DNA of 59,271 nucleotides, the filler included, from Basidiobolus ranarum (Eukaryota): the NCBI GenBank assembly GCA_040143965.1. It is 6 parts of 6 records of this genome, joined end to end, with 100 filler letters (N's around TTAATTAATTAA, not from the genome) between each part and the next. Parts side by side here need not be neighbours in the genome. Positions count along the whole stretch, not along the records: positions 49,497 to 59,271 come from JASJQH010007660.1; 5 more parts are not named here. One strand, written 5' to 3'. The notes under the pieces are model-generated. The model worked only from the letters and a program-made list of their open reading frames with translations. It was not told where the DNA came from and made no database searches. This document shows, one piece after another, positions 8,644 to 59,271 of the stretch (the first letter of the stretch is position 1; each line of letters starts with the position of its first letter). A program made the translations under genes and the position numbers.

Positions 8644-9660
8644 ATAGTCATATATACTAATCCTACTAAAGGTCTAAATTTCTCAAATTTCTGTCTAGCT
8701 AATGGTTTTGTTAATATATCAGCAATCATGTCTTCTGTAGAACTATAAGTTAAGTCAATAAACCTATTCTCTCCAGTCTCTCTAATAAAGTCATGCTTAA
8801 TATCTATAGGTTTGCTTCTATTATGAAAAGTGGGATTTTTAGCAAATTTGATGTAACTTTGATTATCTTGAAATATTGTAGTTGGTGAGTTTTCAGAATA
8901 ACCTAAATCTGTTAGGATTTTTCTTTACCATATTGCTTCTTTTGTTGGTTCACAGGCAGCCATATACTCTGCTTCTGTTGTTGAAAGTGCTATGATGGGT
9001 TGTTTCTTTGAATTCCCATAAATAGCACCATTACAGCAAAGAAACAAGTAACCTGTTATAGATATCCTGTCTTCAATATCTCTTCCCCAATTTGCATCTG
9101 AATATCCCTTCAGATCAAAGTTTGATCTAGAATCTGTGTATTTTAGACACAGATCCACAGCTCATCTCAAATATATGAAAATCCACTTAACTGCTATGAT
9201 TTGATCAGATCCATAATTTTGAAGATATTGGCACTTAACTCCCACAGAATATGCAATATCTGGCAATATTCCAATCATGATATACATCAAACCACCAACC
9301 ACAGATTGATAAGGAAATTTCTGGCTTTCATTTGAATCCAAAAACATCCAATTAGAACCATTTTTGGTCATCTTAAGATTTGTCTCCATTGGGATAGATA
9401 CTGAATTACATTCTTCCATGTTAAACTTCTTTGATACAACTAGGATACACTTAGACTGGTTTAAAGTTATTGTTTTGATAGCTCTATCTATCTTAATTTT
9501 GATTCCATAATAGTATGAAAGTTCTCCAAGATCAGTCATTTTAAATTTGGCAGATAAGCTGGATTTGGTTTTCTCCAAAGTCTTCAAGTCATTAGTTACT
9601 ATAATAAGGTTATCTACATATAAGGCTAATACAACTGGGTTTGTCTTATCTGGCCTGCAG
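8644..9660 (-). mobile_element. Degenerate Ty1/Copia pol (RT + RNase H) with in-frame stops
   Basis: LYVDN (YVDD mutated), KFKMTDLGEL, PYQSVVGGLMY..PDIAYSV, GYSDANW, ALSTTEAEYMA, DNQS..NPTFHNRSKPIDIKH, DMIADILTKPL; stops near 9160 and 8925; 5' part missing. Confidence 0.95.
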
Positions 9661-9811
9661 TAGATACTGTTGGATAATTAATCTTTATTCAACATCATAT
9701 TTAACTTTAGTTATGATACATATATCAGAAACAGAAAGCAATGTATCTATAGCCCCTATATTCTAAATAGGTATATCTCTATATCTATATAACAAGTATG
9801 TCTTATTACCC

Positions 9812-9911
9812 NNNNNNNNNNNNNNNNNNNNNNNNNNNNNNNNNNNNNNNNNNNNTTAATTAATTAANNNNNNNNNNNNNNNNNNNNNNNNNNNNNNNNN
9901 NNNNNNNNNNN
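9812..9911. other. Artificial assembly spacer (N44-TTAATTAATTAA-N44); also at 19719-19818, 29619-29718, 39512-39611, 49397-49496
   Basis: Five identical 100-bp N runs with a six-frame stop linker. Confidence 0.98.
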
Positions 9912-19718: not shown

Positions 19719-20089
19719 NNNNNNNNNNNNNNNNNNNNNNNNNNNNNNNNNNNNNNNNNNNNTTAATTAATTAANNNNNNNNNNNNNNNNNNNNNNNNNN
19801 NNNNNNNNNNNNNNNNNNGGCACCTGGAGACACTTACTCTATTCGTGTGATCACTAACACAGGAACCGACCGCTACAGCCACTACTTTAAGATTGAATGA
19901 GTCAATCCGTGGCCATAGCTTTACCCTTTCATACATTCCCAAAGGCCCTTAGATACCGAACTAAATTTACCCTTGTTTACTCTAGATATCGAAATAAAAT
20001 AATATTAATCCTTATATATTGTATTGTAGAAGTTTACATATTGTGGCTACTATTTGTTGTGGCCAGACAAAAATGGTTCAATATTTACC

Positions 20090-29618: not shown

Positions 29619-29718
29619 NNNNNNNNNNNNNNNNNNNNNNNNNNNNNNNNNNNNNNNNNNNNTTAATTAATTAANNNNNNNNNNNNNNNNNNNNNNNNNN
29701 NNNNNNNNNNNNNNNNNN

Positions 29719-38505: not shown

Positions 38506-39611
38506 TGTGTGACAATTCCCAGATCTTCCCTCATGTTTAGTGTGTATGCTCTGTGCTTTCATTTATTCATCCGCTTAATCGTATCCAATCATTTCGCTTC
38601 TTTTCAACTCCCTGGCCTCTCCAGCTTTGGAGCAGTTTTAGAATATTCAGTTGAATTGTACGCGTGAGCTTCAATAGATATATTTGTTTTCCATTCCCAC
38701 CTCACTTCACCTATCTCTTTTCTTCATTCTCTGCCCCCACTTGGCTCTGTTTGAGCAACAGAGAGCATACAACGTTTTAGAAGTCATCATTTTCATCCAA
38801 TTAGTAATAAAATATTAAAATGGCCTATATTTCCAATACCCATTGCATCTTGCAACTCCAACTAAATCCAAGTCAGCCATTGGATAATCATATGATGAGT
38901 CATTTCAATGGAACACAGTCCGACTTCCCAAATCCAATTATTAAAAGCATGCCATTTCTAGATCAAGGTGGATTTGGAGATAAGTTTAAAATATTAGATA
39001 ATGACTGATAATAGATAATCGCAATATTAATCTCAGAAGCGATATCTAACACTTTAGCGGATTTCTTTCCTTTTCTATATTTTCAGGATCATATTCGCGT
39101 TCCACTTTGATCGTGATCTCCCGTCCTTATTTATCGACAATTTTGTAAATTAATCAGCTTTTGGGTGATCCCTTTTTTATTATGGCGAACTTGGTATCTT
39201 CCATGACTGAACAATGCTTGGTGTATTGGCAGGTATTGGCGTATGGTTAGATTTAAGAAATCACTTACTATGATATGACTTCTAAGTTAATGCGATGAAT
39301 TCGATCAGTGAGTTGCAGAAATTGACGGATGAAGATACTTTCCAATATCTAAGACATGGCATTGTGAACCCATCATGTGATATTTCTAATCAATAACCTA
39401 ATTGGGGTAAGAATGAAAATTGGGGTTAATGGTAGTAACCATGTTAAATTCATGGAGATAACTATTTTAAATTCTTCCGCTTCTTATGGAAATGGTGTAG
39501 CCATTTTGGCANNNNNNNNNNNNNNNNNNNNNNNNNNNNNNNNNNNNNNNNNNNNTTAATTAATTAANNNNNNNNNNNNNNNNNNNNNNNNNNNNNNNNN
39601 NNNNNNNNNNN

Positions 39612-49396: not shown

Positions 49397-49496
49397 NNNN
49401 NNNNNNNNNNNNNNNNNNNNNNNNNNNNNNNNNNNNNNNNTTAATTAATTAANNNNNNNNNNNNNNNNNNNNNNNNNNNNNNNNNNNNNNNNNNNN

Positions 49497-52400
49497 TTTG
49501 AACTCCAACTGAGGGGCCTCCGTAGCATTTATATGTATTTCAAGTCAAGGGTATATGCATGTCCATCACAGCACGAATGTTAGACTCGAATCTGGAATGC
49601 TACAGTCAATATATTTCTATTAATATCATGATGATGAATAAACGTCTTACTGCGGCTTGGTCGATTTCATTGGTACAGTATTTGTGCCATTTTTTGACTA
49701 TTGCAATTTCCGTAGTCATCGATTGCCTACGTTTACACATGAGTTTTTGGAGATTTGATGATTCGATTGAGAGATTGGCTTAGAAAATTTTTTTGGATAA
49801 ACTCCGATGGGATCTGGTGAACTTGTAAGTACTGCGGTCTATATACTGAAGACTGGACCATAACTAGCAAGAATTTGCAAGTCGCTAGCATTCAAACAAG
49901 GCCACATTAAAATGAAGCATTGAGCCAAGTTCAACACTTCACTAAAACTAAACAGGTCAGCAACAGAACTGAGTCAGTATCAAATCAAAATCCTTTAACG
50001 CTTTGGTTAAAGGGAACACTGCCAAAAAGCTGATATCAGACAAGCTTCAGGAAGGTATTTTACATGCTCAATGCACAGAATGTATTGGTTAAGCTCTGAA
50101 ACTGAGAGTAACTCGGACTTCTTATTGTATATCTACCTGCAAGTTACCGAGATTGCTAGTTTTGTGGCTATTGTGAATTGAAAATACTTTAGTTATTAGT
50201 GTATAAGCCAAATGATGGCATGAAACAATATATAAACCACCTGCTTGTTATGATTTTTGCATTGGAAGAAATGAATTCCTGGTCTGAAATTACTTTATTT
50301 CCATAAGTATAGCACGGGAATTTTACCAGTGCTTTAAATAAAATATTAAAAAAATTTTAGCAATTAACTTCTGAATCAAACTGCTATCGGTTGTGCGATG
50401 GCTGCTAAGATAGCGCAAATGTATTTGCAGAGGCAAGCACCGCGTATGTTGTTTAACAGAAGCGCAGTTCTCAAATATTACCAAGAGCACAATCACTTGA
50501 TGGTTACTGTAGTTATTATCAAAATCATGTCATCAACATTCACTGGACCGTGCTTCTAAAGAATATCTCTGGAAATAATCAATTTGGCATCAACAAGTGA
50601 ATATACTAGCTGCTCCTTATTGATAGAAGGATGTGCGTAAAAAATCGGAACATTGGACAAGCTGAGGTGTTACATCTGCAACAAGAGCCCTGTTGCATGA
50701 CCCCTGCTTATAGGAAAACAGAATATGTCATAATTTTGTCTACTGTTAAAAATTCTCTCATGACAGTTTTAATTTTCATTATGAGTTTTGATTACACTTT
50801 CGATTACTGTGGTATCCTCTATAGCATGGTATCTACTCACTTTCCTCAGGAGTATCCTCTCCTATTCATGGCTTCAATATGGTGGAAATACCTAGTCATT
50901 GGAACCATTGGTCGGATTATGGGAATCAAATGTGATGCCTTAATCAACGTAGTGGGAACAGCCTGCCTATTGAATCTAAATGTTACCCACTGTGGCTTGT
51001 ACGTGATGCCCCAATGTCCTACGACCTCAGAGCCAAGATCAGGTAAATATCAACTTAACCATATATCTAACTATGCATATTTTCTAATCACACTGAAAAT
51101 CATCCAGAGTTAATAGCTTGCAGACTCCGTGCTTTCGTATCTGAGAGAGTTGTATCTCCTAGATTTCCAACTTTCTTCGCCTAGTCTACTTTGTCCAGAA
51201 ACCTTTAACCCTACTACCTGAATCTCACGAGTTGAGATTGCAGCCTTCGCTTCTTCGAGACAACATTCAAACGAGGAGTCCCATGACATATCAATGATTA
51301 AATGTTTGAAGCATTGAATTTTGTTAGGAAAGAGAATGAGAGAGAGGATTTTTTTTCTAAGATCTGGATTGATAATTTCTGTTATCTTTGACTACAAATG
51401 CCATTTAAAGGAATACGAGTTGAATCGCTCTTTGGTTTTCTCAGCAACGACCACGATTTGACTAAAATGTAAGAACCATATTCCATCTTTCAAACCGTGG
51501 TAAAAATGGATATGGATGCTTTTTTGTTTTAGCATTCCAATATCAAACCACTGATAACGTAAGTACGAAGTATTTAGCTTCAGTCAATTCGAAGTGATTA
51601 GCTGATATTTCAAGTATATCAGTATGATAAGTTAGCAGCCAAGTGTGCGCAGATTGATTTTGGAAAGTGGCTTAGCCCCAACGATATCCTGATAACCATC
51701 AAATGACCAGATCTGCTTGCACGTATTATAACAAAATGGGCACAATGAGATACAAGCTCTTAAAAGAACCTTTGGTTAAAAGACTTGGTCGATACCCTCC
51801 TTATTTGAGCACTAGTCGGTTGGTATATCCTACGCTCGCTTCATACTCAAGGATTTTTTTCCCACAATAAGTACACCCTGGATTAGTAGTGACATGGCGG
51901 ATGAAAATGTCTTATCTTCGGATTTGGCTCGGGAAGATCTCAAAATACAACCAACAAAGTGAAGCCAAGATAATGCAAATGCAGACTCTGTAATGTCAAT
52001 GTAGATTGCAGGATCCAAACTATGCCCAGAATGTGAGTTTCGAGTATCCTCAAGGAATATTCCATGATACAAAATAACCACATCCCTGGAAATTACCAAT
52101 TATAGTCACTACCCTGATTTGTGAATGGATTAATCCGATCTAGCACTATTATAGGTGCATTCACACCACATATTAATACATTCATGTCACCATTGTCTAA
52201 GCATTTTGAACTCGGTGCCTTAGTGAAATAATACCGTTGATAATACTGGACATTCCAGGCAAAGGAATAGAATGGTCAAGGAACATGATGCATGAGGCAA
52301 TGATCTAGTATCTACCCCACAACTCACCTGATTGGGACCACACTCAAATGATTCATGCTACGGAACGCTCCATCTCAGTCTTTAATTTGCACGATGCACT

Positions 52401-55400
52401 TGCCTATGCGCAAAAGTAGATATAGATAAATATTTTTGCAACACGTAGACCTATCATGTTGGCCACCTGATCGAAACGTGGTGTGCACTATGACCAATCA
52501 GATCTACTACTGTATTTGCTTTGATAAACCAAAATAATGGATAATGCAGTTAGCTTGAATTCTTTTCACAATCGGATCTACTTACCGCTGACCAATCCTT
52601 GTTTGAGAAAGATTGGTTTTATTAAGTTTAATAAAGGATTTATTAATCTCGCTTTCGCAGGCGAGCATACCTACAGACTAATAAAACACTTGGTCTAATA
52701 CACCGTTAACAATTCCCAAAATACATGCTCTGGTGCAGTAAGTGCACTCATGTGGTGTATCGCTGTTCTTACTAGAGATAGAACACTGTATGATTCTTCA
52801 CCACGCGTTAGATACTGAAATGGCAGCAGGCCCATCTGAAACATTATCTCCGTATCACATCCAAGTAGCTAGATGTATCTTGACACATAAGAACCCCATG
52901 AAATCATCTATATAATTGCTTTGTATTGTGATTCTTCATTGAATTGCCATCTTCCCCTAACACTCACCGGGTAAGAAGCGGGGTAGTTTCTTTCTGAAAT
53001 TAAGTATTCAGATTTCGTATATGTGGTCATACTCTCACTTTATTCTAAGCTATCAAATATTCACTCGATAGGTAGCTAAATGGTGGATGAATATGACTTC
53101 TCAGCAAGTTTATACTATGAGAATCTCAGAATGCGAGCGGCAGAACTAAGTCAAGATAATGGGAATAACAGACTTAATCATGTTGAAGTGGATTGTAAAT
53201 TAAAGTCATCATGTAGTAGAGTAAGGTGGCTATACCTCGAGTAAAAGAATGGACTATACTATTTGTATAGGGTGTACTTTCTATAAATCTAGTGCTTATA
53301 GAATCAAAATCACTTAGCCTGATGAAAAATCACCAGAAGAGAGGCACACTCAAACAGCATATGACAAAGAAGGGTAGTATTGTCTGGTGAAAAATTACGC
53401 GGAGGAAAAGTACACTCTAGTAGTATATTCTAGAGTTAGTGTAAGATGGAACGCGCTCTAGAAATATTTCCTTATGAGTCATTTACTTAATTTCGGGATT
53501 GGTGGCTGGTCTAATCTTATCCTCTACATCCGAAATACTTACTATACTTTTATTTCATGTTTACAATTGAAGCCTCATTTTGCCTGATTATTTTCCCCAG
53601 CAAAAGAATACATCGAGGCATAACCTCGATGCCGATATGAGGTAGCGTATTTCTGTGCTTGATATTGTTTTTTCAGATAAGCCTGCTACTGCACATTTGG
53701 TGTCATATTCAATCTTTTCAGTAGTTTAACGCGACAAAGCCTAACCATATTGTAAAGACGATTGACAAGAGTAGATATGAAAGCCAAAAAATTGAAATGA
53801 ACTTATAATGCCGCTCACTCAAAAAACTGTACTTGCGCATATCATGACCAGCTATACTTGGCACAAGTAAAGAATGACCATCTCATATTTAAATATATAT
53901 TTAGAAGTGAAGTATAATAACAGTCGAGATACTCCAATAGCAAAATTTAGGTAACTTGTATTTTGCTACTATTTCCAAAATATATGCACTAGCTGTAACT
54001 TCAGTATACACCTTGAATATCCTATACTATGATTAGACGTAGCGTGTAGTTAGGCGTTCAGTAGTCGTATTCTAGCATCAATCACAGCATTGAAGTGCAC
54101 TGTAGAAACAGATATCGACTTTCTTTGTTGTGTATATTAAGCACCGTGCTTTTTGTCATCAGTTACGATCATGGCAGAATTCAAGTATTCCATTTTCTCT
54201 ATGTTGAGGCTTGCCAATGCTAGGTTTATGGCTTCCCTAAATATAGAATTCTCAGTGGACTTTGAACCAGAGTTTACTTCACGGAATCGCATGACTATAC
54301 TTGGCAACAAAATATAGAAATACTGCTGTCGGTACACATTCCAAGTGGTCATGGGTCGAACAATCTGAGAGCTTTGAATGGGTTCGATAATTTGCCCTTT
54401 CTCAATGGTTTCAAGATATTTTTCAATTCAATGCACCAGTTTAAAGTTCGGAATATTTCTCAGATAAACTATCCTCGAGTAATCCTTTATCAGTCAAGAG
54501 ATTCGTGGGCCTGGGCCTGGATCATGTGTGCCACGTGTGAAAAAACTCAATATTTGCTAGCTAGGCTATTTTGGATATAATGAATCAAGGTTTCATTCTT
54601 CCGCCCAGAATCTTTCGAATGTTACTATTCATGGATGCCTTGTGCTTGATAATATCTTATTTGACCAGGTAGACGTATCAGGCCAGTATTGGTAAAAGAT
54701 ATGTCTGATGATAAGTATCCGTTGTCGGCATAGTTGGCAATGGTAGAGCCTATTGGATGTAAGGATCCTCATCGACGTATTCAGTAGTATTAATAGTGCT
54801 CCAAATTTCAAGATACTCCCAAGACAGAACAATTACTCTAATATTGCAGGTAGACAAATAATGAGCAATATGATGCATTAAATAAATTCATGACTCCATA
54901 TCAAGATCTATGCGAATACGAGCACGAGGTCTTGATTTATCCAGAACACAAACACAGAATATACCAGATGATGCCTAGCCCTGACCTCTACCTCCTCCCT
55001 AGGAATTTGGTTTCAATCGATAAGTAAAGATTACATCTTCTGTCGGCTTTCATACTCTAGCCATAATTGCCGCTAAGTGTAACGAAAGACAATTCGGGGA
55101 GAGGAATACAAGCGATGCGGCTTTTATTCAACGATCCAAATGGAGTGCTATGTCAAGGCCCAACAGGAGTAGAGAAGTGGAAATCATCATTTCAGATGTA
55201 TTAGTCATCGGCAATTACTTCCGTATTTGACTTAGTTAATATATAGTGCATCTTTAGGAGCTATTCTGCACTGATCTTGAGGTACGGACTCCTTCTTCTT
55301 TGGTGCCTGTGATCTACAAATAGAATCCAACAAACTTTTAGATTCCCATACAGCAGGTGTAGAGTCTCGTAGAGTAAGCATTCAACACTATTCTCGTACA

Positions 55401-56150
55401 TATATCATTGGGACTATCAATGCATCTGTAAGTGTTAGAGGCATGGCATCCAGTAGGAGTATGTAGTCAGTGTACATGAAAACACAAATCACTAGATTGT
55501 TTAACTTCCAATGCAATCCCAAAGCTCCAAACAAAGGGCCATCATTTGTCCCGTAAATACAGTGTGGTGGGCCCAGAACCAAGCTCAGCAATTCAGCATT
55601 GGTGGGTATATCGTTTCTTGCCGCTATTGATAAGAATCTGAGTGATTTAGGTAGCGTCAGGCATTCGTAATATACTTGGTGTGACTGTTTCAGACTAGTA
55701 GAATATGCTGACCTATATCACTTTCTAAGATTGATGGGAGACTTCGCTTGTCTTTCTTCAAAACGATCGTTTGAAACCAACTGGCCTTTTGCCAATCCAT
55801 TAAATGATATACAAAATGGAGCATTATGTGTTGGGTGATTGGCAGTGGATAGTGTAAGAACACACCATAAATCATGCGTGTTACTTCAACTGAGTCATTT
55901 AAAATGAGCAAAAATAGCGCTTTCAATGGAGATCGGAAACACATTTCCACACAACAAACAGGTGCATGCTTCACCGAATGAGCACTCCGTTCCTGAACTT
56001 TGTATTAGATCCTACTCTATGACCGAATTGTTAATCTTTAAGCACACTGCTGATTCTGAAGGAGAAACACCGTGGCAGAATTTGGGTTTCAAATTTCTTC
56101 CCTGTTCAAGGGATAAATACATTTTGACTGGGCCATTTACTCTCTAACAT
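49497..56150 (-). pseudogene. Heavily decayed multimodular NRPS relic (apparent A-T-C-A-T-C-T-C, truncated by contig end)
   Basis: Degenerate, correctly ordered motifs on the minus strand across frames: FETQ..SPSESAV (~56070), RARIRIDLDME (~54910), DGHSLL (~53875), QANCIIHY (~52545), SVGYTNRLVL (~51820), YFHHIEAMNRRGYS (~50870), LLVIFEN (~50480), SVADLF..VLNLAQ (~49945), PDPIGVYP (~49805). Confidence 0.6.
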
Positions 56151-56366
56151 TGCGTCAATTTAGCAGTACATAATTGACTTGAAGTTCCTTCTCAGTGTTC
56201 GACTTCTTTTTGTTCACTGAAATCCTCCTCTTGCCTTCAATACTTGTTTTCCCAGGCCTTCGAGACACAACTTGACGGTACACACACTGGGTAAAATTAA
56301 GGCACCCTTTCATCAGAAGCATACTCTCCTTTCCTTGTAAACACCTACTCTACAGAGAATAGAATT

Positions 56367-58225
56367 ATGAAATTTCTAACATTGGCACTAACACTCGGCT
56401 CGTAGCTATTGGTACATGCCAGATCTGTACCACAGCAATCCACCAAATGTTCCAATATCGTGGTTAGAAAGGAGATTCGTCAGCTATCCCGAAAGGAATT
56501 AGCTGGCTTCATGAAGGGGATACAAGAGTTGAAGCGATTGGGAATCTTCGATAGATTAGCAAAGTTCGGTGCTGATTATTCCTACTTTTCAACCAGCACT
56601 CCCTCTTACTTACCCTGGAATCGATTCGTTCTGCGGATATTTGAGTATGCTTTGCAGGGTGTGAATCCCTCTATCGTTCTGCCTTATTGGGTAAGTGTCA
56701 AGTGTCACTTCTTGTATTCTCACCATTGCTAATCGCCTCATTTATTGGTTGTATCCTTCGATTTATGTGGATAGGATTGGACACTGGATTCGCAAGCGCC
56801 TGAAGATAGTGTTGTCTTCAAGTTGATGGGTGGCAATGGAGCAGGGGACAAACAGTGCGTCGCAGATGGGCCTTACAGATCTTGGGAGCTTCCATTTCCT
56901 CTACGACACTGTCTCAGAAGACAATTCAATGGCCCATACAACAAGATTCTCTCTTTTTGGTCGCCTGAGTCTATCGCGCTATTGATTAACGCGGATATTA
57001 CTTACCAAGAATTCAACAGCAGAATAGAAGCCGGGCCAAGTGGCTCAGTGGAGCAAGCGATAGGTGGAGAAATGGCGACACCCTTTAACCAACACGAGTA
57101 TGAATTTCTAACCTAGTGCATTCTACGGTTTCTCCATCTTCGCTAGACAATGACTAACTTCATTTTCAACCCTTTCTCTTTTTCTATTCATCACATAGTC
57201 CGCTTTGGTACTTGCATAGAGCGTATATCGACAAAATCTGGGTAGACTATCAAGCGAAATTCCCCGAGAAGAAGTACGAATACAACGGAGTGAACTTCAT
57301 CGGTGGTAACAATGCCCATGTATCAGATCGCATGATGCCATTCGGTGTACGCGTTGACTCTGTGATGGATAACAAGGGACCAGGAATGTGCTATAAGTAT
57401 TCGGATACGCCCAGTGCCCATATCAATCTCGATAATCCAGACCTTGAATCGTATGGACTCCCCGATTTAACCGGAAAAATCAATGATCGAGAGGCGTATG
57501 CCACTTTGCTAAATGGTGTTGCACCCTCCGATAGAGAGGATCAGAGCTCGTTAAGAGTGCCATTTGCAGTATCCAGACGTTTCATCGATTTCAATAGATT
57601 TAATTATACTGAAGTTCGTCGTTTGGAGGTGTTGAACAGTGTTTTCGTAAATCAATTAAATTCGCAAGGCTATCAGTCAATAGTTAATTTGGCTAACAGG
57701 CAAGATACCTGGAACAATTGTGCCGCGCTTGGAAGTAAATATGGCACTACTTATGGTAATCAAAACGCCAAACCTGACCATACTTTGCCAACTTGTGACA
57801 CAACTGCGCCATTCTGTGCCTTCTATCCTTTGATGGAGCAAGCTCTAAAGGAACGTAAGAGTATCGCTGAAATCGAAGATGCCTCTCCAGTATTGAATGT
57901 GGTAAAGAACCCTAACATACGAGCAAAAGGTTCTCTACCATCTAGTGGTAGGGGTGGTGGTATTTCTGATACTAAGGGTATGGTCTTTAAAGATGGTAAA
58001 TGGGTTCGTCAAGATGGCACTGTATACACACAAGTACGCAGAAAGGGTGGTGCTGGAAGTGCCGGTCAGTGGCGTTTCGTTGGCGGAAGATGGGTCAAAC
58101 GCGAAAGTGGCTCCAATGTCCAGATCACAAAGAGAGTCAAGGGATCTCACAGCGGCCATGGCAGGAGAAAGGTTATCAAAGTTACTCGTGTTATACGTCG
58201 AGCCGATGACGAGCAGTATGAGTGA
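56367..58225 (+). CDS. Tyrosinase-fold secreted protein lacking copper ligands; in-frame TAG at codon 13
   Basis: CSNIVVRKEIRQLS, YLPWNRFVL..FEYALQ....IVLPYW-DWT.DSQAP, GGNG....CVADGPY, HCLRRQF, IEAGPSGSVEQAIGGEM, DPLWYLHRAYIDKIW, CYKY. 3 exons. Confidence 0.85.
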
Positions 58226-58564
58226 TATGTGTTTCTCTATTTTCGAGCAAAGAACCCCTTGTATGGTTTTTATGATATATGACGCTATATTTTCCAATAG
58301 TGAAATAAACATAACAGTTCATCAAGAATCGATGCTTTGTTTGTTAATATCACAAATTATTGGCAGATTCTCAATCATTACCACGTGATCATATACCCTG
58401 AGATTCAGCTGCTTAGTGAAGTATTAACGGTTGATAGCAGCAATATAATTGGTCATTGAATTGTGTTGACATCAATAATGTGAAAAACATGGTGACTAAC
58501 TGAAAATTAACTAAATAGCTGCTTGCAGTCGATTGTACTCAACACCCAAGTCCACACAACAAAA

Positions 58565-59096
58565 ATGTCGCTAAAATCGGGTAAGATAGTGTTTATTAAA
58601 GAATTGGTTCAGTCCTTGAACGACTGGGAAGGTGAAAGTGTAAGAGTCACAGGATTGTAAGTAAACACTTGTCTATCTTTAAACAAGACAAACCACCGTA
58701 ACCAATTTCAATTTTGTTGTAGACTTGTGACTTACGATGTCCATACCAACTTGGCAACAATTCAGCATAATGACTATACTTTAACTATTGATACCTCTTT
58801 ACTTGGAGTATTCTCTCATAGAATCAACGGTCTATTTCAGTTTGTTGGGGAATTAAGCAATCAAGTTAGTCCTCTCACCTTTTTTAATCAATATTTCGAC
58901 CACTTATGAATATCCTACTAAGCCAAACATACCTATATAGAATCCCCAGCAACCACAAAAGACTCGCAATATCTCGGAATATCTACTACTAGCAAGAGTA
59001 GTGAGAAATATGGAAGGATTAGATTTGCAACTTTATGAGAAGGCAATAGCCATACGTAAAAAGTTCGAAAAAGATAGGAAAGGGTTAGGCTTTTGA
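58565..59096 (+). CDS. TEN1: CST complex telomere-capping subunit Ten1 (animal/plant-type OB fold), 3 exons
   Basis: SGKIVFIKEL..GESVRVTGLLVTYD..LATI..LTIDTSLL..LFQFVGEL..LLARVVRNMEGLDLQLYEKAIAIRKKF. Confidence 0.85.
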
Positions 59097-59161
59097 GGAA
59101 AAGTAACTACGTGCTGGTAGTGACGAAGTTGGAGACCCGTACCTCTACTTTCAATGATGCT

Positions 59162-59271
59162 GATCGCGCCGGGCGGGGGCGCGCCGGGCGCGACGGTGGC
59201 GTGGGAGGTCGGCAGAGGGGGTGGCGCAGAGGGCTCCCAGGGCTGGGTGTGGGGTGAGTGTTGTCTGGGGA
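59162..59271. other. Abrupt very GC-rich tail, probable chimeric or contaminant contig end
   Basis: Composition jumps from AT-rich to G/C-dominated exactly after a GATC at 59162-59165. Confidence 0.6.

Follow-up and report, generated by a model that had tools for sequence, protein, structure and literature searches.

A tyrosinase-like gene of Basidiobolus ranarum with all six copper-ligand histidines replaced, its predicted fold kept and a nonsense codon in its predicted signal peptide

Can a tyrosinase lose every residue that holds its copper and still be kept by selection, and if so, can its gene still deliver the protein? The question is raised by a gene at the end of a 59,271-nucleotide stretch of DNA from Basidiobolus ranarum (GCA_040143965.1), which we call the window. 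The gene lies at 56367-58225 on the plus strand, has three exons and corresponds to K7432_010866; its deposited protein of 509 residues is called P0001 here. A preliminary description, made from the DNA alone, had proposed a pseudo-tyrosinase in which all copper-binding histidines are replaced while the fold is kept, and had seen in it selection for a non-catalytic secreted function, putatively as a scaffold, ligand binder or regulator of active tyrosinases. We found that the six histidines are indeed gone and that their loss does not resemble random decay, and also that the frame is broken by a single TAG within the predicted signal peptide. The reading we favor, at somewhat better than even chances, is that the gene encoded a secreted pseudo-tyrosinase in the past and is now a null allele or a young pseudogene.

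The translation of exon 3 was 100% identical to P0001, whose NCBI record sits on the same 9775-base contig as our sequence. The gene begins with the ATG at 56367, ends with the TGA at 58223-58225 and comprises 558 codons including stops. Codon numbers are counted from this ATG, and residue numbers of P0001 from the NCBI start, which is codon 49 (Met49). The feature had earlier been taken to end at 57420, but the frame continues through exon 3 to the TGA. Both introns have GT..AG ends, and their junctions rebuild PYW-DW and NQH-D-PLWYLH, in agreement with the earlier remark that the splice sites are preserved. The parts of the gene, all on the plus strand, are as follows.

56367-56420, plus strand: start codon and predicted signal peptide, codons 1-18, MKFLTLALTLGS*LLVHA, where the asterisk is the TAG (from translation; cleavage after VHA placed by eye).
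56403-56405, plus strand: nonsense codon 13 (TAG, in frame), ahead of every conserved residue of the domain (from translation).
56367-56690, plus strand: exon 1, 108 codons, with the CuA region (from translation and alignment with relatives).
56568-56570, 56592-56594 and 56619-56621, plus strand: the CuA replacements G68, T76 and N85, in exon 1.
56691-56774, plus strand: intron 1, 84 nt, GTAAGT..TAG; its removal restores the family motif PYWDW (LPYW joined to DWTLDSQ).
56775-57097, plus strand: exon 2, with CuB-1 and CuB-2, GPSGSVEQAIGG (from translation, alignment and the NCBI protein).
57039-57041 and 57051-57053, plus strand: the CuB replacements S197 and E201, in exon 2.
57098-57198, plus strand: intron 2, 101 nt, GTATGA..TAG, phase 2; the junction of GA with T gives the Asp of NQHDPLWYLH, in agreement with the NCBI protein.
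57199-58225, plus strand: exon 3 to the TGA stop, with CuB-3 (LHRAYID), the remaining domain sequence and the C-terminal regions (100% identity to P0001).
57218-57220, plus strand: the CuB-3 replacement R223, in LHRAYID, in exon 3.
57485-57739, plus strand: family-conserved C-terminal helical region, P0001 residues 264-348 (from paralogue conservation and the structure model).
57743-58222, plus strand: lineage-specific tail, P0001 residues 350-509, with no alignment partner among relatives.

Membership of the tyrosinase family was clear. Spliced P0001 matched the Pfam family Tyrosinase (PF00264) at 61.2 bits against a cut-off of 22.6 (expect value E 2.4e-16; profile positions 23-213 of 214), and an exon-by-exon scan gave a single weak match, in exon 1 and under the cut-off. 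In phmmer searches against Streptomyces tyrosinase chains of solved structures (7ciy/1wx2), E ranged from 9e-25 to 3e-24. An AlphaFold2 model of P0001, built on a 135-row alignment, had a mean predicted local distance difference test score (pLDDT) of 77.1 and a predicted template modelling score (pTM) of 0.73. Its pLDDT exceeded 90 across nearly all of residues 1-345 and fell below 50 in much of the tail from residue 350; in the helical region it was ~71 at residues 261-270 and 89-97 from about 271 to 340. When this model was compared with the PDB by Foldseek, tyrosinases ranked first (1wx2_A with E 1.4e-11 and a template modelling (TM) score of 0.71 by target; 3nm8_A with TM 0.73). The predicted fold is compatible with a four-helix-bundle tyrosinase core, which does not imply that the apo-protein folds.

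The alignments with relatives also bore out the earlier statement that structural motifs and cysteines are conserved. P0001 keeps the PYWDW, GGNG, IGG, DP..LH and D+4 motifs, the conserved Cys and the C-terminal helical region, the last sharing with the paralogues the consensus DR..LR.P....VR..E..N...LN..GY.S, and it retains the family Glu before CuB-1 (E145). The family is greatly expanded in this group of fungi: bioRxiv 10.1101/2022.06.24.497490 gives an average of 48 PF00264 copies in Entomophthoromycotina, so that birth and death of copies is to be expected, and PMC9391592 names PF00264 as an indicator family of Zoopagomycota secretomes.

We then turn to the copper site itself. As set out in PMC3658974, a type-3 copper site is held by six His in the patterns H1(n)-H2(8)-H3 for CuA and H1(3)-H2(n)-H3 for CuB, with a Phe four residues before each H3 and an Asp four residues after the H3 of CuB. 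P0001 retains this Asp (D179 of P0001), and has Tyr and Trp instead of the two Phe. Alignment with relatives and with 7ciy/1wx2 placed G68, T76 and N85 at the three CuA ligand positions and S197, E201 and R223 at those of CuB, so neither half shows its three-His pattern: CuA has G, T and N instead, and CuB has S, E and R. In the alignments with the Streptomyces chains, N, S, E and R face the His of LPWHR, H..VH and LHHA. The CuA and CuB peptides quoted in the preliminary description are present in the sequence, its claim that all six copper His are replaced (GTNSER) stands in alignments with both relatives and Streptomyces tyrosinase chains, and, as it had said, only the non-ligand first His of LHH is left.

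These positions are rarely anything other than His elsewhere in the family. Among 163 other homologues, His occupied the six sites in 128 of 135, 131 of 139, 130 of 141, 148 of 160, 156 of 160 and 135 of 151 covered rows; of the 17 aligned non-self matches of near length, 16 had His at every covered ligand site and one, P0018, was short of two. Of the 18 bases in the ligand codons of the B. ranarum gene (GGT, ACC, AAT, AGT, GAG and AGA), 12 depart from CAY, and these sites have therefore been free to change for a long time. Mutation resembling repeat-induced point mutation was considered as the source of the His loss and rejected: it would turn CAY into TAY and so give Tyr, a residue seen at none of the six sites. 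Since a type-3 copper site needs six His (PMC3658974), no binuclear copper site is expected without the imidazole ligands, and oxidase activity, excluded on this established knowledge, is predicted to be absent.

Whether such a protein could still be made depends on the start of the frame, which reads MKFLTLALTLGS*LLVHARSVPQQSTKCSNIVVRKEIRQLS... around codon 13. The residues before the TAG resemble the leaders of paralogues (MKF..ALVLALTSL), and the frame after it aligned without a gap to residues 15-109 of the His-bearing paralogue P0165 (47% identity, E 8e-31), the N-terminal region of that protein just before its first conserved Cys. As read by eye, the stretch from the ATG to the TAG contains no GT, which rules out removal of the TAG by splicing, and the ~200 nt upstream of 56367 contain no ATG. 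An upstream first exon was considered as well and rejected: beyond these ~200 nt only one frame led by an ATG was seen (about 56019), and nothing in it resembles a leader. The NCBI model starts at Met49, downstream of the TAG and because of it. It thus omits three elements for which the DNA ahead of Met49 still codes in the same frame: the leader, the first conserved Cys and the conserved R.E.R.L segment.

On this sequence evidence, the TAG appears to be a nonsense codon inside a genuine signal peptide; that the TAG itself is real, we infer. It follows that the allele as assembled cannot make a secreted protein. The gene is thus not an intact one for an expressed pseudoenzyme, and its ancestral frame carries a disabling lesion (TAG, 56403-56405), as that of a pseudogene would. 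Two earlier claims are affected: the long open frames said to be preserved are broken at codon 13 inside the signal peptide, and the proposed non-catalytic secreted function could not be served by this allele as assembled. The base after the stop is C (TAG CTA). A TAG followed by C is a comparatively leaky stop context in eukaryotes.

We compared the ligand sites with the rest of the domain using columns at least 80% conserved among the other sequences, P0001 being scored in the window frame from the codon after the TAG. It kept 42 of 47 non-ligand conserved columns against 0 of 6 ligand columns (Fisher p 2.0e-5), and the five changes outside the ligands were conservative (F>Y, S>N, N>H, F>W and W>Y). 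Its retention of 0.894 was close to the family median of 0.915 (157 relatives), with 51 sequences lower. The same test on the truncated NCBI protein gave 36 of 46 columns (Fisher p 3.9e-4). The combination expected of a pseudoenzyme, ligand residues lost with fold-defining residues kept, is therefore what the columns show (0/6 versus 42/47).

The rest of the frame was equally well preserved, with no further stop or frame break in the other 557 codons. As a neutral null, we simulated substitution under the Hasegawa-Kishino-Yano (HKY) model with the base composition of the window. For d values of 0.02, 0.1 and 0.5, the simulated sequences gained 1.7, 7.6 and 23.8 new stops on average, and at no divergence did the chance that all six His codons disappear without a new stop rise above about 5e-8. 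Even small divergence left little chance of escaping a new stop (0.18 for d=0.02, 0.016 for d=0.05), and this points to a young TAG. In a 'quick' IQ-TREE tree of 29 rows, the end branch of P0001 was 1.26 long, compared to 1.24 for its His-bearing neighbor P0002 and a median of 0.99. The multi-lesion pattern of neutral pseudogenes was not found: there is no other stop, the introns are canonical and column retention is 0.894. The earlier view that the ligand loss differs from random decay is upheld by the contrast between ligand and other columns, the single stop, the 12 of 18 changed codon bases and the branch of 1.26 against 1.24. From the null model, rather than from the ratio of nonsynonymous to synonymous substitution (dN/dS), we infer that selection went on acting on the frame after an ancient loss of copper binding.

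A second degenerate tyrosinase copy was seen in the genus. P0127 of B. meristosporus (ORY05871.1, partial, 204 aa) has lost three of six His and reads TIWDW in place of PYWDW. Of 41 conserved columns it retains only 29, and its end branch measures 2.91. Judged from its sequence, this copy looks like real decay, unlike P0001.

No orthologue of P0001 was found. Queried with exon 3, the protein collection returned the self-match alone from 865 candidates. Full P0001, searched at near lengths, gave 18 matches including itself, the best at 35-43% identity, and a search of shorter lengths gave three, the best at 48%, with no orthologue in either. Exon 2, run by phmmer against 1.84 billion representatives, had 447 matches at E<=1e-3, of which the best non-self match had 52% identity, and metagenome contigs gave 97 relatives (80 kept), the best at 35% over long matches; neither set held an orthologue. 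Over the domain, the best non-self matches thus reach 48-52% identity; for comparison, other tyrosinase pairs of B. ranarum and B. meristosporus are 65-82% identical. The nearest sequences to P0001 were Basidiobolus paralogues at 35-52% identity, namely K7432_001853 (P0165), ORY04611.1 (P0019) and P0002. P0001 grouped with the His-bearing P0002 and P0019/P0165 in both the IQ-TREE and the FastTree tree, and in IQ-TREE also with P0007, which was not a FastTree row; the group had a Shimodaira-Hasegawa-like approximate likelihood ratio test (SH-aLRT) support of 85 in IQ-TREE and was a starred four-row clade in FastTree.

The search for His-less orthologues that the preliminary description had suggested thus found none in two protein collections or in metagenome contigs. 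It had also named, as evidence that would overturn its view, orthologues that keep the His together with neutral evolution on this branch. The nearest relatives do keep the His, but at 35-52% identity they are paralogues, and evolution along the branch does not appear to have been neutral.

Loss of the copper ligands was not confined to this gene. His was counted in 168 rows, of which 131 covered all six sites; 114 of these had six His and 17 had fewer. Eight rows had two or fewer: besides P0001, P0153 and P0155 had none of the six, P0041 and P0085 one, and P0097, P0111 and P0166 two. P0085 is a Streptomyces 'tyrosinase family protein' (WP_388474196.1). The His-poor homologues keep 83-91% of the other conserved columns, and several are good matches of each other (38-46% identity). 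Their best matches are otherwise His-bearing sequences and not P0001, and in the FastTree tree the His-poor state needs three changes, with P0001 in a clade with His-bearing Basidiobolus rows. This indicates that P0001 is an independent case of a recurrent event. By their sequences, P0041, P0097, P0111/P0166, P0153, P0155 and P0085 may represent a maintained copper-less tyrosinase-like subfamily.

Beyond the domain, the protein continues into the tail. Its last ~100 residues are basic and Gly-rich, with no counterpart in any relative, and are predicted to contain two short beta-hairpins with a repeated G[KR]WV[RK] (FKDGKWVRQDG and FVGGRWVKRES). The tail matched no family in Pfam, and in a search of the atlas it matched only Zoopagomycota tyrosinase clusters (0.77-0.80), with structural TM scores of at most 0.26. 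The window consists of six pieces of 9811, 9807, 9800, 9793, 9785 and 9775 bases, with spacers between them that consist of 12 letters flanked by N44 on each side. These are separate contigs, so genes on different pieces are not neighbors, and the real context of the gene is only 49497-59271. On this contig, 11 of 12 flanking open reading frames (ORFs) tested had no Pfam match. None of the eight ORFs of at least 70 aa tested in the 6.8 kb upstream of the gene (49497-56300) had a Pfam match, and this stretch may be repeat-rich or non-coding DNA. The remaining features of the window are listed below.

About 57980-58130, plus strand: predicted hairpin pair in the tail, P0001 residues about 429-468 (from the model).
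58661-58906, plus strand: ORF ~440 nt past the end of the tyrosinase-like gene, matching Pfam Ten1_2 (a subunit of the telomere-capping CST complex) with E 8.7e-10 and 38.7 bits (cut-off 27).
9162-9677, minus strand, on another contig: ORF that by eye resembles a fragment of a copia-type retrotransposon reverse transcriptase (..LALYVDNLIIV..).
9812-9911, 19719-19818, 29619-29718, 39512-39611 and 49397-49496: spacers between the pieces.

How did the locus come to combine a well-kept fold with a stop in its leader? Under the reading we favor, the gene would be a paralogue that diverged within the large family of secreted Basidiobolus tyrosinases. Copper binding would have been lost long ago, the six ligand codons changing several times each, while purifying selection on frame and fold, as suggested by the null model, would have continued after the loss. 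That frame and fold residues were kept so long implies a copper-independent function of the secreted protein, and for a long time the product most likely acted as a catalytically dead secreted protein of tyrosinase fold. By analogy, it could have bound phenolic or Tyr-bearing ligands, or else the partners or inhibitors of active paralogues. A recent nonsense mutation at codon 13 would then have stopped translation within the signal peptide and left a null allele in the sequenced strain as assembled. Several points weigh against this account. The TAG rests on one assembly and a single 9775-nt contig, to which the NCBI record also belongs, and the two protein collections and the metagenome contigs yielded no orthologue, His-less or otherwise. 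The structure model was built on an alignment of His-bearing relatives and is no proof that the apo protein folds. The null model contained substitutions only, took today's sequence as its starting point and let nine other His codons stand in as proxies, although indels, if added, would lower the ~5e-8 further. The trees were made by 'quick' IQ-TREE and by FastTree and have many weak forks. Finally, the unmatched tail of ~100 residues could have arisen by read-through beyond an older stop, and would then signal loosened constraint.

Much of the same evidence would serve a gene that is still functional, the TAG being an assembly error, one allele of a polyploid or heterokaryotic genome, or a leaky stop. 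The signs of past selection (42/47 columns, the neutral simulation and the ligand codons) apply to it equally, the TAG is the sole lesion in 558 codons and is followed by a C in the comparatively leaky context, and the His-poor cluster elsewhere, with its 38-46% mutual identity, shows that such proteins can be maintained. The stop, however, is in the only assembly available, the NCBI annotation had to begin at Met49, and a base-call error that creates a stop would a priori be rarer than a real nonsense mutation in a family of ~48 copies. We regard a functional gene as a serious minority possibility, distinctly less likely than a former pseudo-tyrosinase that is now null. In its boldest form, P0001 would be a live secreted copper-free protein of tyrosinase fold, selected for a task other than oxidation, for example the binding of phenolics or Tyr-rich targets or the shielding or regulation of active tyrosinases, with a TAG that is allelic, strain-specific or leaky, and PF00264 would have given rise to such proteins at least three times independently (in Basidiobolus, in a probably bacterial cluster, and in Streptomyces). 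Taken as a whole, origins and jobs included, we find this picture a little more doubtful still.

The other explanations appear much weaker. Were the NCBI model right, the product would be a 509-residue intracellular protein that starts at Met49 and has no signal peptide. This is the longest ATG-initiated frame after the TAG, but it leaves out the leader, the first conserved Cys and the R.E.R.L segment, for which in-frame codons still exist upstream. Members of the family are secreted and Cys-rich, and the start is forced by the stop; we think this model improbable. An ordinary, neutrally decaying pseudogene, its His losses part of random decay, would account for the disabling TAG, for a singleton with no orthologue in the collections searched, for the short contig with 6.8 kb upstream that lacks a Pfam-matching ORF and for the unmatched tail, and the decayed look of P0127 (29/41 columns, end branch 2.91) provides a precedent in Basidiobolus. 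We nonetheless consider it very unlikely, given the at most 5e-8 for losing six of six His with no other stop, the 42 of 47 conserved columns, which lie inside the range of copper-bearing relatives, the intact splice sites and a branch that is not elongated. An active enzyme with a rebuilt site, in which Glu201, Asn85 and others bind another metal or a different reaction is catalyzed, draws on the carboxylate (E) and amide (N) at two ligand positions and on the retained family Glu before CuB-1 (E145). The residues at the other four positions (Gly, Thr, Ser and Arg), however, bind metal badly or not at all. The Arg side chain more likely fills the CuB cavity, and our guess for the former copper cavity as a whole is the Arg223/Glu201 pair. 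No relative has the same set of replacements, and we give this explanation the least credence of all.

The scale of the finding is modest: one interrupted copy, in one assembly, with no orthologue in the collections searched. If P0001 was a true pseudoenzyme, it would be a fungal counterpart, within the tyrosinase branch, of the copper-less hemocyanin derivatives of arthropods, and together with the His-poor bacterial relatives it would suggest repeated re-use of the tyrosinase fold without copper. In the open-access literature we found no paper on His-less PF00264 tyrosinases or on such repeated copper-free re-use, and Basidiobolus tyrosinases only as copy numbers. The annotation is affected in either case. 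K7432_010866 is labelled 'tyrosinase copper-binding domain-containing protein', yet its product is predicted to be unable to bind copper, and the deposited model is an N-terminally truncated artefact of the in-frame stop.

With secreted tyrosinases of the alpha subclass of type-3 copper proteins, such as those of Streptomyces castaneoglobisporus (1wx2) and Bacillus/Priestia megaterium (TyrBm, 3nm8), P0001 shares the domain and the predicted core, and its locus also encodes an N-terminal leader like that of the Basidiobolus paralogues. It differs from them in lacking the six copper ligands, in having Tyr/Trp for the Phe pair, in its ~100-residue unmatched basic tail and in the nonsense codon of its leader. 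The His-poor PF00264 homologues have the same domain with most or all ligand His replaced and the other conserved columns kept, but they are not close kin of P0001, and their replacement residues differ. Outside the family, dead secreted enzymes can act as binders or decoys, as do Phytophthora sojae XLP1, an inactive paralogue of XEG1, and inactive chitinase-like effectors. P0001 shares with these the concept alone (fold kept, catalytic residues lost, action by binding); folds and organisms are unrelated.

The closest comparison is with the arthropods. Hexamerins and pseudo-hemocyanins are copper-less derivatives of arthropod type-3 copper proteins. These and the myriapod hemocyanin-like CleHcBI2 kept the type-3 fold after His loss and presumably were re-used without oxygen or copper chemistry, as we suggest for P0001, but they belong to the hemocyanin/phenoloxidase branch and not to PF00264, and they are expressed, abundant proteins. 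That copper-less type-3 derivatives exist in arthropods is already known from PMC6034248, which reports that CleHcBI2 lost three of six His and evolved ~4.5-fold faster than its sister. P0001 shows no such acceleration; it has lost six of six His, and its frame is interrupted by a stop.

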